Shown here: positions 52,789 through 54,312 of the stretch, piece by piece
Numbering within the stretch: the stretch's first letter is position 1
How the letters are laid out: the number at the start of each line of letters is the position of its first letter
DNA from: Escherichia phage vB_Eco_SLUR25
Length of the DNA stretch: 58,998 nucleotides
Reading direction: 5' to 3' (one strand)
Sequence record: LT907986.1
Translations under genes and position numbers: made by a program
The notes under the pieces: model-generated
Database searches by the model: none
Told to the model about the DNA's origin: nothing
What the model saw: the letters and a program-made list of their open reading frames with translations, nothing else

Positions 52789-53070
52789 TTAACGCTTATG
52801 AAAAGCTGACAGGATTGCAAGTGTTACAGCACCCAATCCAACGACGGTAGCATAAGTGAGTTGGTGTTGAACTTTAACAAAGCCATAATAGGTGCTAGGG
52901 ATGTCTACAATCCCAAACGCCATAGCAAAGCTGGTCCCAAGTAGTGCTACAGCAAGGGCGCGTAATAACGCCCTGCTCATTGCTGTAAAGCCCTTCTCAT
53001 TACTATCTCCGGTCATTATAACAACAATGATTAGAAATAGCGAAACGACAACTAATAGATATTCCATCAT
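52789..53070 (-). CDS. small membrane protein
   Basis: 93 aa, two to three hydrophobic helices. Confidence 0.45.
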   Translation of the reverse strand: MMEYLLVVVSLFLIIVVIMTGDSNEKGFTAMSRALLRALAVALLGTSFAMAFGIVDIPSTYYGFVKVQHQLTYATVVGLGAVTLAILSAFHKR

Positions 53071-53273
53071 TTGCGTCTCCTGTACATGTATTGATCATAC
53101 GCAGTCGCAATAATAGTGACTGGCCAGCAAGCGAGTATACATAGAAGACTTACAATCTTCTCCCAACGTTTCTTATGGGCTAGCGCATAATCATAGTTAT
53201 TCCAACAAAAGAAATAAGTCATTGTTGCAATAACTGCACCAATTACAAAATACATAACCACATATTCATGCAT
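53067..53273 (-). CDS. small membrane protein
   Basis: 68 aa, two hydrophobic helices. Confidence 0.45.
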   Translation of the reverse strand: MHEYVVMYFVIGAVIATMTYFFCWNNYDYALAHKKRWEKIVSLLCILACWPVTIIATAYDQYMYRRRK

Positions 53274-53460
53274 CGGTAAACTCCCAAATCAGATTATAAT
53301 TATTTCCCGCTGGTACATAGCGGCCTGGACGTGGATCGAAGCTTTCCACTGAAAACTCCAGCGTTCCGGCGCTATATAGTTGTACCTTTTGTCCGTCCCA
53401 CGGTCCGCCTATCAATTTAAAAGTCTGTCGATAACCTTTTGCAGCTCTAGCCATGCTCAC
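53266..53460 (-). CDS. hypothetical protein
   Basis: 64 aa ORF. Confidence 0.4.
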   Translation of the reverse strand: MSMARAAKGYRQTFKLIGGPWDGQKVQLYSAGTLEFSVESFDPRPGRYVPAGNNYNLIWEFTDA

Positions 53461-53496
53461 TCCTTAAATACCCGCGCGAACGCGGGTATTATTTTA

Positions 53497-53703
53497 TTAC
53501 GCTTCCGGTGTTTCCGGTGATGGTTCATCAGGAACAACAATAACGTCGGCTAAAACTTTTAACGCTTCTTGTTGCTCCGCTGTCATATTATTCCAGTAAT
53601 AGACGTGAATGTAAACTACTGGTTTGTCACCATGTTGCCACGGTTCGCGACTTGCTACATCCACACCTAAATCGCTTGCTACGCTCTTTTCTTTACCAGC
53701 CAT
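53497..53703 (-). CDS. small hypothetical protein
   Basis: ATG 53703 (MAGKEKS...) avoids overlap with upstream gene; weak RBS. Confidence 0.35.
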   Translation of the reverse strand: MAGKEKSVASDLGVDVASREPWQHGDKPVVYIHVYYWNNMTAEQQEALKVLADVIVVPDEPSPETPEA

Positions 53704-53725
53704 GCTAATGTACCCCTTTAAGGTT

Positions 53726-54028
53726 TTACACGCGGCTAGCCCCCAAAAGTACCCTATGATCAAGGGTTCTAATGCGCTGCTCCAGCCAACGTGCGTTCTT
53801 TTCAAAATGTTTATTGGTACGCGCTGCTTTGCACGCATCAATAATACCTAACTCACATCCAAGCTGCGTTTGTCCCATCACGTAAGAATGGGTTAACATG
53901 CTGGATACAAGCTCTTCACATTGTAACTTAATAGGATGGTCTTGGCATAGTTTCTTTGCTGCGTCTTTCAAATCCACAGCTTGGACACCAGGCGCTATCA
54001 GTAAAGTTACGAGTAATAAACGTTTCAT
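53726..54028 (-). CDS. secreted (periplasmic) Cys-containing protein
   Basis: Signal peptide MKRLLLVTLLIAPGVQA; four Cys; TAATG coupling with upstream gene. Confidence 0.45.
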   Translation of the reverse strand: MKRLLLVTLLIAPGVQAVDLKDAAKKLCQDHPIKLQCEELVSSMLTHSYVMGQTQLGCELGIIDACKAARTNKHFEKNARWLEQRIRTLDHRVLLGASRV

Positions 54029-54312
54029 TATGCTTTCCCTTTACGACATAAGGCTTGAAGTTCCAGAAGCGCATCAATGTCTTCCTGTGGAGTTACACCA
54101 ACGTGAATAGGGTATTTAGCGCGACATTCGTTGCCGACTTCAACAGTGTGGTTAATGTAGCTGTAAACACATCCACCAATAACAGTGAAGATAAGCGCAA
54201 CAATCATTGTAAGGTACTTACCTTGTTTGCGTTCTTCATTTTGTTTATTAAGCTGACGGTTAAGTTCTACCGCGTCGATTTTACCTTTATTGTAATCGTC
54301 TACTAAGCTCAT
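54028..54312 (-). CDS. single-pass membrane protein
   Basis: ATG 54312 with AGGAG RBS; TM segment YLTMIVALIFTVIGGCVYSY. Confidence 0.4.
   Translation of the reverse strand: MSLVDDYNKGKIDAVELNRQLNKQNEERKQGKYLTMIVALIFTVIGGCVYSYINHTVEVGNECRAKYPIHVGVTPQEDIDALLELQALCRKGKA

Follow-up and report, generated by a model that had tools for sequence, protein, structure and literature searches.

The described systems closest to the gene block considered here are the exclusion proteins Imm and Sp of phage T4. Imm is a membrane protein of 83 amino acids, while the 97-amino acid precursor of Sp carries a Sec signal in front of a small cysteine-containing periplasmic domain. In a single infection the phage can do without either protein. 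The gene imm immediately follows the DNA polymerase gene 43, and sp is situated 3' of gene 61, which encodes the primase. Exclusion proteins of other kinds are also located in the envelope. Sie proteins such as those of the HK97 gp15 type are small accessory inner-membrane proteins that act on DNA entry at the inner membrane, the gp15-type proteins being prophage morons expressed in the lysogen, and the receptor-blocking lipoproteins Cor and Llp serve for exclusion in virulent siphoviruses of the T1- and T5-like groups. Other phage proteins with which genes of the block can be compared are the lysis regulators RI and RIII of T4, the class I and class II holins, and the anti-BREX proteins such as Ocr and OrbA.

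The locus that is compared with these systems occupies positions 52789-54312 of sequence record LT907986.1, and the window analyzed, 58,998 nucleotides in length, is the complete genome of the Escherichia phage vB_Eco_SLUR25 of the genus Seuratvirus. The block contains six small minus-strand genes, labelled A to F. The product of gene B resembles Sp in being a short precursor with a Sec-type signal and a small cysteine-containing periplasmic domain, and the products of genes E and F resemble Imm in size and type. The genes of the block are dispensable like imm and sp, and like these genes they follow a replication gene, in this case polB. The resemblance is not accompanied by detectable homology: a profile comparison of Sp with the B family using hhalign gives a probability of 11.7%, with only the signal peptide aligned, and comparisons of Imm with the F and A families give 0.1% and 1.1%, respectively. 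In addition, Sp acts on gp5, the tail lysozyme of a myovirus, for which no equivalent is known in the present siphovirus. The product of gene A resembles the HK97 gp15-type Sie proteins in general layout, but the present phage is virulent, whereas those proteins are expressed by lysogens. B differs from the Cor and Llp lipoproteins in having no lipobox.

Results

Gene layout and expression signals

The limits of the block are exact, since position 52789 is the last base of the gene F stop codon and position 54312 is the first base of the gene A ATG. A first-pass annotation of the window had described this interval as six small minus-strand genes at the distal end of the leftward arm, encoding three membrane proteins, one cysteine-containing protein with a signal peptide and two soluble proteins. 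This description is borne out by the presence of a Shine-Dalgarno-like GA-rich sequence 5' of the ATG of each gene, by the annotation of the same six coding sequences in Seurat (gp24-29), CAjan, KurtStettler, DruSM1 and other relatives, by purifying selection (see below), by the position of gene F as the final gene of the leftward arm, and by the predicted content of the block, which comprises membrane proteins with one (A), two (E) and three (F) transmembrane (TM) segments, the exported protein B, and the soluble proteins C and D. The products, listed as hypothetical in the annotations of about 35 phage genomes, are mostly envelope-directed according to TM and signal peptide prediction, in agreement with the characterization of the block as rich in membrane and periplasmic proteins; three of the 12 TM-containing ORFs among the genome's 92 greedy ORFs fall within the block (crude Fisher p ~0.015).

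Two further statements in the annotation require modification. The block had been placed upstream of the polymerase, but by transcription it lies downstream (3') of polB (54377-56416, minus strand), past a terminator-like hairpin. The genes had also been called tightly coupled throughout, which is correct within the triplets A-B-C and D-E-F but not between them. Overlaps of 1 nt (A/B), 8 nt (D/E) and 4 nt (E/F) and a gap of 22 nt (B-C) are found inside the triplets, while C and D are separated by a 42-nt gap which contains a hairpin of -15.8 kcal/mol.

Three hairpins were located by a scan or by folding of the intergenic sequences. The first, on the minus strand between the polB stop codon and gene A (54347-54367), is the terminator-like structure GCAGACCC-TTCGC-GGGTCTG followed by TTTT, and the annotations of Seurat and SA126VB list it as a terminator; it may keep expression of the block low. 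The GC-rich hairpin between A-B-C and D-E-F (53467-53490) is annotated as a terminator in the same two genomes, and its T-tail is weak on the minus strand and better on the plus strand. The third (52766-52787; -14.6 and -16.3 kcal/mol on the two strands) is a bidirectional terminator hairpin common to gene F and the convergent plus-strand arm, and is annotated as bidirectional in both Seurat and SA126VB. A promoter scan gave fewer sites than shuffled sequence does, for which reason no promoter is proposed, and a search of the block against Rfam gave no match.

In comparisons with the diverged relative STP-SP5, the values of dN/dS are 0.43/2.0 for A, 0.20/1.26 for B, 0.25/1.13 for C and 0.14/1.54 for F. 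Since dN is far below dS in these comparisons, the genes have evolved under purifying selection and are real. It can be asked whether some of the ORFs are nevertheless chance ORFs or decaying remnants rather than functional genes, because E and F have been lost or truncated in several lineages and a 1-nt homopolymer frameshift is present at the 3' end of B in SLUR63. This explanation can be given almost no weight in view of the Shine-Dalgarno sites, the conserved overlaps, the excess of dS over dN, and the invariant cysteines and motifs that persist down to 30-57% identity. The six ORFs are real genes, and they make up the promoter-distal end of the leftward arm, which is concerned with replication and DNA modification.

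Properties of the encoded proteins

Gene A (54028-54312, minus strand; PHROG 26834, unknown function) encodes a bitopic inner-membrane protein of 94 amino acids with a TM segment at residues 35-53 and a predicted N-in/C-out orientation. The best conserved part of the protein is its cytoplasmic N-terminus, MSLxDxYNKGKI..ELNR, and the periplasmic tail of about 40 amino acids contains two invariant cysteines. Gene B (53726-54028, minus strand; PHROG 23744) encodes a 100-amino acid precursor with a Sec-type signal peptide, which was called by rule rather than by SignalP. The signal peptide follows the n-h-c pattern, with MKR, LLLVTLLIAPG and VQA as its successive parts and predicted cleavage between VQA and VD, and it is kept in all homologues. 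The mature protein is predicted to be helical and periplasmic, and contains four cysteines. None of the four, and neither of the two periplasmic cysteines of A, varies even in homologues of only 30-43% identity. The stop codon of A and the start codon of B overlap in the sequence TAATG, an arrangement which is conserved in the E. coli Seuratviruses, in STP-SP5 (coordinate 5048) and in yong3 (coordinate 4753), at 30-67% identity.

A and B are genus-specific and always present. Each occurs in 35 phage records, those with A being exclusively Seuratvirus records, and word-index searches for the two genes found Seuratvirus-like contigs only. An exhaustive HMMER search with the B profile detected three real distant relatives among 1.84 billion representatives, together with one spurious repetitive 998-amino acid ORF. 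Gene C (53497-53703, minus strand; PHROG 22730) encodes an acidic soluble protein of 68 amino acids, which has 71 amino acids in DruSM1. A longer ORF of 113-114 amino acids at 53497-53841 was considered as the true gene C and was rejected, because it overlaps B out of frame and all annotated relatives use the 68-amino acid gene.

Gene D (53266-53454, minus strand; PHROG 12090) encodes a soluble, beta-type protein of 62 amino acids in which the motif GGPxDG is invariant. Within the genus, no other gene of the block diverges as much: D has a high dS and protein identities of 76-98% where its neighbours are nearly invariant, and it has been exchanged between diverged alleles. Homologues of D are found in the early-gene arrays of unrelated phages.

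Gene E (53067-53273, minus strand; PHROG 23919) encodes a 68-amino acid membrane protein whose two TM segments form a hairpin and whose C-terminus (RRRK) is basic. Gene F (52789-53070, minus strand; PHROG 15669) encodes a 93-amino acid membrane protein with three TM segments, a predicted N-out/C-in orientation, an invariant loop, YYGxVKxQHxLT, and a C-terminal tail of only 3-4 residues. Homologues of F occur in 9NA (gp16; Nonanavirus), in Sashavirus, in SP069 and in eiAU (Eiauvirus), and a word-index search gathers the F family into 31 clusters, every one of them located on contigs of phage size. F is accompanied in several phage lineages that are unrelated to each other by the convergent plus-strand genes P122, P176, P94 and P67 (51359-52759), of which P122 weakly matches the MazG/PRA-PH-type pyrophosphatase family, below the cut-off. 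This association is not obligatory, since within the fetched flanks three loci have F without the P176-P94 module; at one of these (L026), F and the large terminase gene are direct convergent neighbours.

Searches of the six proteins against Pfam and NCBIfam gave only sub-threshold noise, and a search with PADLOC gave no match. In PHROGs, each protein matched only its own family of unknown function at E values up to 10, with the exception of a weak match of B to phrog_1256, “valyl tRNA synthetase modifier” (E 0.0018), which was judged to be driven by the signal peptide. No similarity to holin, antiholin, Sie or Cor families was found for the proteins of the block in PHROGs, Pfam or NCBIfam, and family profiles of A, B and D yielded nothing meaningful among PDB sequences. 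AlphaFold2 models of B (from a five-sequence alignment) and D (from a single sequence) have pLDDT values of 55 and 54, respectively, and the best Foldseek match of the low-confidence B model in the PDB has an E value of 3.7; because of the low pLDDT, fold inference and fold searching are uninformative here. A paper on Avs2 and Ksap was also considered, but it concerns the Bas22 terminase and is unrelated to the block.

The lysis genes and a putative receptor-blocking gene of the phage are found at other positions. Endolysin, holin, i-spanin and o-spanin genes form a plus-strand cassette at 28163-29598, so the block is not a second lysis cassette, and B was rejected as a lipoprotein or o-spanin because it has no lipobox, its signal peptide ending in LIAPGVQA before a V, without a cysteine. 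A Cor/Llp-like lipoprotein is encoded at 47830-48060, beside a J-like tail-tip gene. The phage thus already has a lipoprotein of the receptor-blocking type, an observation which counts against reading the block as an exclusion locus.

Distribution and dispensability

Among the E. coli Seuratviruses, 31 of 33 genomes contain the complete block, with nucleotide identities of 92-100% and A and B protein identities of 92-99%. The composition of the block varies among relatives: STP-SP5 is without gene E; yong3 is without gene C and has at the position of E a three-TM protein that is possibly a variant of E; VogelGryff, a natural isolate which grows on K-12, has lost F and has a truncated E; and a metagenomic relative has a truncated F. 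The sister genus Nonagvirus is without the whole block, and in 9g the tail-fibre assembly gene is the immediate convergent neighbour of polB. A search of 5,426 complete E. coli genomes found no copy of the block, which indicates that it is not prophage-borne. The expectation that the locus would be a site of accessory gene turnover therefore holds for the promoter-distal genes, in that E, F and C are variably lost and D alleles are exchanged, but there is no hot spot within the E. coli Seuratviruses.

Gene deletions are available for DruSM1, which is 98% identical. In this phage ORF35 corresponds to A, ORF34 to B, ORF33 to C, ORF32 to D, ORF31 to E and ORF30 to F, the primer-to-gene mapping having been verified computationally. 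Each of ORF30-35 was deleted singly with plaque formation retained, and all six are listed as “Yes” in Table S1 (Ojima et al., bioRxiv 10.1101/2024.04.14.589459). The same table also lists polB and the clamp gene as deletable (Ojima et al., bioRxiv 10.1101/2024.04.14.589459), and its essentiality calls must accordingly be regarded as rough. The viability of the six single deletions and the absence of the block from Nonagvirus support the view that the genes are accessory and are not replication machinery.

Taken with the losses of E, F and C and the exchange of D alleles, the same two findings give the block the properties of a moron-like variable accessory cassette. It is an ordinary non-essential cassette of a sort that is common in phages, and it is composite, with three parts that have different histories: A-B(-C), D, and E with F.

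A phenotype in the defence-system panel of DruSM1 is available for one gene of the block. Deletion of A, B, C, E or F is without effect on the panel, while deletion of ORF32, which corresponds to D, is one of nine ORF deletions flagged “Brex type1” in Table S1 (Ojima et al., bioRxiv 10.1101/2024.04.14.589459). The main text reports “nine ORF-deletion mutants less infectious” on BREX type I (Ojima et al., bioRxiv 10.1101/2024.04.14.589459), and it is from the match between the nine flagged ORFs and the nine less infectious mutants that the direction of the effect, sensitization to BREX type I by loss of D, is inferred. Deletions of FolE, QueD and QueC share the phenotype (Ojima et al., bioRxiv 10.1101/2024.04.14.589459). 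The effect of deleting D is the only phenotype on record for the block, and it is cytoplasmic. The link between D and BREX is weak, since it rests on one entry in a preprint screen, for which a literature search found no published follow-up, and the phenotype may reflect joint polar effects on E and F.

D is like Ocr, OrbA and other anti-BREX proteins in being small and non-essential and in that its loss may lower plating on a BREX type I host, to judge by the one screen. It is unlikely to be an acidic DNA mimic: with seven K+R residues and six D+E residues it is near neutral, and so is not Ocr-like in charge.

Discussion

The best overall explanation of these results, which is put forward tentatively and with slightly less than even confidence, is that the block is a dispensable composite cassette in which A-B, with E-F, blunts secondary infection while D counters BREX. 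According to this proposal, A and B would be made in fixed proportion and would form a disulfide-stabilized complex between the inner membrane and the periplasm. This complex, together with E and F, would modify the cell envelope in the replication phase of the infection, most likely in order to block or blunt secondary infection at the level of DNA entry or lysis from without, by analogy with T4 Imm and Sp. D would be a cytoplasmic counter-defence factor against BREX that acts either directly or by supporting the 7-deazaguanine modification of the DNA. A-B and E-F may plausibly act in the envelope or in exclusion, and it speaks for the proposal that lysis and the Cor-like lipoprotein are accounted for at other loci. 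A bolder version of the proposal, which is rather unlikely, is that A-B is an undescribed two-component device of virulent siphoviruses, spanning the inner membrane and periplasm, that blocks or senses superinfection, with the conserved cytoplasmic helix of A passing the periplasmic event inward, and that D is a new type of direct BREX type I inhibitor whose variable C-terminal third tracks host BREX variants.

The envelope proteins might instead serve host takeover or counter-defence at the membrane by inhibiting an inner-membrane or periplasmic target such as the divisome, a transporter, a protease, or an envelope-associated defence outside the tested panel. Small bitopic phage proteins that block cell division exist, the neighbouring gene D has a defence-related phenotype, and the best conserved part of A is its cytoplasmic N-terminus, which suggests a cytoplasmic partner. 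Nevertheless, deletions of A, B, C, E and F are neutral against the DruSM1 defence panel and no homology to known inhibitors was found, so that this explanation appears unlikely. A role in the control of lysis timing, in which B and possibly A would act like an antiholin in the manner of T4 RI and RIII, and E and F would be auxiliary holin- or antiholin-like proteins that tune the canonical holin, is decidedly unlikely, even though several features of the proteins fit it. B matches RI in size and layout (about 100 amino acids, with an N-terminal export signal and a small cysteine-containing periplasmic domain), the TM counts and lengths of E and F are those of class II and class I holins, respectively, and dispensability for plaque formation would suit a regulator. 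The lysis cassette, however, is 24 kb away on the opposite strand, no match to a holin, antiholin or RI family was obtained, the C-terminal tail of F is too short to be like that of the holins, and the phage's own holin (114 amino acids), as inferred from its sequence, has short loops and lacks a large periplasmic domain with which an RI-type partner could interact.

The position of the block after polB would be explained if its products were accessory factors for replication or DNA modification, either tethering the replisome to the membrane or importing 7-deazaguanine precursors. The genes lie directly downstream of, and on the same strand as, polB, the clamp gene, DpdA and queuosine-pathway genes, and deletion of D shares its BREX phenotype with deletions of FolE, QueD and QueC. 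This explanation must be considered highly improbable, because each of the six genes is individually dispensable, Nonagvirus replicates and modifies its DNA without the block, a terminator-like hairpin intervenes between polB and gene A, another gene of the arm already provides a YhhQ-type preQ0 transporter, and F is present in phages of different genome organization.

The block is neither the lysis cassette nor the known receptor-blocking exclusion locus, and the present result is mainly a cleaned-up annotation of a set of genes that is dispensable, composite and partly common to unrelated phages. Should D prove to be a genuine inhibitor of BREX, it would provide a small new tool for studying the mechanism of BREX. 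If A-B or E-F are exclusion or envelope-remodelling proteins, they would provide a siphovirus example of a class that is known mechanistically from only a few phages. Since the Seuratviruses are candidates for phage therapy, and since exclusion between co-applied phages lowers efficacy, an exclusion role, if true, would bear on the design of phage cocktails.

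Results

Phages of the Queuovirinae of this kind have part of their dG replaced by 7-deazaguanine, and the window is the complete genome, rotated, of a known virulent siphovirus of this group. Over the interval 52500-54500, nucleotide comparison gives 100% identity with Escherichia phage vB_Eco_SLUR63 (LR025196.1), and about 30 further Seuratvirus genomes match this interval at 92-99%. A genus-wide comparison that included SLUR63 found 58 core genes, the majority without an assigned function (PMC5758909).

The six small minus-strand ORFs that the first-pass annotation had placed at 52789-54312 match those coordinates exactly. 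Named in transcription order, gene A (54028-54312, 94 aa) has a single hydrophobic segment at residues 35-53, and is predicted to be N-in/C-out because basic residues (ERKQGKY) directly precede this segment. Gene B (53726-54028, 100 aa) has a predicted typical Sec signal (MKR, an 11-residue hydrophobic core, VQA/VD) and four Cys; genes C (53497-53703, 68 aa, acidic) and D (53266-53454, 62 aa) are soluble, and genes E (53067-53273, 68 aa) and F (52789-53070, 93 aa) have two and three transmembrane segments. All six have an ATG start with a Shine-Dalgarno-like sequence ahead, and all are hypothetical proteins in Seurat (gp24-29), CAjan, KurtStettler, DruSM1 and others. The block genes are under purifying selection: in the comparison with Salmonella phage STP-SP5, dN stays well under dS (A, 0.43 against 2.0; B, 0.20 against 1.26; C, 0.25 against 1.13; F, 0.14 against 1.54). 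Even in homologues with as little as 30-57% identity, B keeps all four of its Cys, A both of its periplasmic Cys and F a loop motif without change. Near 53752, at the 3' end of B, a run of G reads GGG in SLUR63 but GGGG in all relatives examined, which shifts the tail to ...HRVLLGASRV (100 aa) from ...HRGTFGG (97 aa); either the variant is real or the homopolymer was misread in sequencing, and only the non-conserved tail is touched.

The block had been described as lying upstream of the polymerase and as tightly coupled throughout. It lies instead downstream of polB (54377-56416, minus strand), which is 5' of it in transcription, past a terminator-like hairpin at 54347-54367, and the coupling applies within the triplets A-B-C and D-E-F (overlaps of 1 nt for A/B, 8 nt for D/E and 4 nt for E/F) but not across C-D, where a 42-nt gap holds a hairpin of -15.8 kcal/mol (53467-53490). 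The plus strand gives this hairpin a better T-tract (ATTTTATT) than the coding minus strand does (TTTAAGG), and the element may mainly attenuate the minus-strand transcript or affect its stability, or it may stop antisense transcription. The leftward arm ends at a bidirectional terminator (52766-52787). An extra gene for a 63-aa basic soluble protein lies between polB and A in STP-SP5 (5397-5588 of the fetched locus L007) and is lacking in E. coli Seuratviruses; it is another sign that the post-polB junction may accept small-gene insertions.

The suggestion that the block is a site of accessory gene turnover is borne out for the distal genes and between genera, but not among the E. coli Seuratviruses: 31 of their 33 genomes carry it in full, at 92-100% identity. 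In phage 9g of the sister genus Nonagvirus the block is absent and polB converges straight on the tail-fibre assembly gene, so the whole stretch from the tail fibres to polB is specific to Seuratvirus. A and B are present throughout, and the stop codon of A overlaps the start codon of B even in STP-SP5 and Hafnia phage yong3, where identity has dropped to 30-67%. E is missing from STP-SP5 and C from yong3, which has, in the position of E, a 98-aa protein with three transmembrane segments and weak similarity to E (E-value 0.013); in VogelGryff F is gone and only half of E remains; and F is 58 aa in a metagenomic relative. To judge by these comparisons, the block is a composite. D varies from 76 to 98% protein identity, with dS up to about 1 and differences mostly in the C-terminal third, between nearly invariant flanking genes, a pattern that indicates an exchange of diverged alleles; ORFs resembling D are found among the early-gene arrays of an Erwinia phage and in some Klebsiella phages.

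F has relatives in Salmonella phage 9NA (gp16), Sashavirus, SP069 and Edwardsiella phage eiAU, where, as in the window, it is the last gene in its transcription unit. In most of these phages the convergent neighbours of F are homologues of P176, P94 and P67, plus-strand genes of the window; three loci have F without this module inside the fetched flanks, and at the one of them that was studied closely, L026, F directly faces the large terminase gene in convergent orientation. The 9NA genes gp13-16 are 80% (P176), 72% (P94) and 53% (F) identical to those of the window, and in 9NA and eiAU F is preceded by a small protein with two Cys whose N-terminal segment is hydrophobic, like a signal or an anchor. 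The module of P122, P176, P94, P67 and F (51359-53070) occurs also in eiAU and Sasha-like contigs, otherwise unrelated phages, and this suggests that the whole convergent unit may be horizontally exchanged. P122 has a weak, below-cut-off match to a MazG/PRA-PH-type pyrophosphatase family. P67 (52556-52759, plus strand, 67 aa), with a Cys-rich N-terminus (MCGNTNRCC...CNC) and a Pro/Phe-rich C-terminal half whose last residue is Phe, is conserved in Seuratvirus and weakly in 9NA, and its family searches matched no family of known function. P308 (50361-51287, plus strand), encoded after the lateral tail-fibre gene, is Gly-rich over a long N-terminal stretch, has the C-terminus PTPPTPPTGCC, and probably starts at an internal Met (about 235 aa); its relatives are 37% (eiAU) and 79% (Sasha-like contigs) identical, and the gene in the corresponding position in KurtStettler (BASEL), bas22_0024, is labelled "putative lateral tail fiber chaperone".

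None of the six proteins matched holin, antiholin, spanin, Imm, Sp or Sie families; Pfam, NCBIfam and PADLOC gave no usable match, and PHROGs placed them in six families of "unknown function" and no others. Profile comparison with T4 Sp and Imm was negative, and a Foldseek search was empty, the AlphaFold models of B and D being of low confidence. Of 50,697 phage records, 35 contain A and B; B has three real relatives only among 1.84 billion representative proteins, and as far as these databases reach both are true ORFans. No copy of the block was found in 5,426 complete E. coli genomes. The block was rejected as the lysis cassette, the endolysin, holin, i-spanin and o-spanin genes being found instead at 28163-29598 (plus strand), just ahead of the terminase genes. 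A 77-aa lipoprotein gene (47830-48060, minus strand; lipobox LLSAC) between the J-like tail-tip and lateral tail-fibre genes likely encodes the Cor/Llp-type receptor-blocking exclusion protein of the phage; the locus by the tail-tip gene has been tied to cognate exclusion proteins in small siphoviruses (BASEL study, PMC8594841).

Ojima et al. (bioRxiv 10.1101/2024.04.14.589459) attempted the deletion of each of 105 ORFs of the Seuratvirus DruSM1, whose block is 97.7% identical to that of the window; the deletion primers, mapped on DruSM1, identify ORF30-35 as F, E, D, C, B and A, and ORF36 as polB. Their Table S1 lists all of ORF30-35 as "deletion mutant synthesized: Yes", and among these only ORF32 (gene D) has a changed defence phenotype, "Brex type1", a flag that other ORFs carry too, among them FolE, QueD and QueC of the deazaguanine pathway; no complementation of the ORF32 deletion is reported there. 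The table also lists mutants of polB and of the processivity factor (ORF37) as obtained, which is unexpected given that the phage has its own replisome. Since polB is listed as deletable the screen is rough, and its Yes/No essentiality calls should be taken as approximate. Even so, it shows that the six genes are dispensable for growth in laboratory E. coli, and that A, B, C, E and F counter no defence system in the DruSM1 panel. ORF38, which corresponds to a small gene between the clamp and DpdA genes (57315-57545, minus strand), is also flagged "Brex type1", and its product may be a second small protein linked to BREX evasion or DNA modification.

Discussion

Phage transcription units commonly end in gene blocks of this type, and the best-known roles of small non-essential inner-membrane or periplasmic proteins in virulent phages are to exclude superinfecting phages, to protect against lysis from without and to time lysis. 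The present block is very probably real, accessory, composite and mostly directed at the envelope. The conserved translational coupling of A and B, their strict co-occurrence and their conserved periplasmic-side Cys suggest that the two proteins could form a complex, and the highly conserved cytoplasmic helix of A suggests that it would span the inner membrane. The block products, presumably made during the replication phase, may act in superinfection exclusion. T4 offers a close positional precedent for a post-polB block: imm immediately follows the DNA polymerase gene there, and sp is found downstream of that for primase.

The block proteins might alternatively control lysis, and the number of their transmembrane segments is holin-like; it is, however, their sole holin-like feature, the lysis cassette is already complete and distant from the block, and the phage holin has no large periplasmic domain to serve an RI-type partner. 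Exclusion is for these reasons ranked above lysis control. For D the most likely site of action is the cytoplasm, where it would counter BREX either directly or via DNA modification. The combined reading, an accessory envelope cassette with an exclusion role together with D acting against BREX, is put forward tentatively, at slightly below even chances, and the specific exclusion mechanism is considered less likely still.

The genes of the block had already been deposited and already knocked out, and their sequence holds nothing strange. What is new is limited to the composite origin of the block, the wider module to which F belongs, the conserved pairing of A with B, and the link of D to the phenotype seen in the knockout screen.
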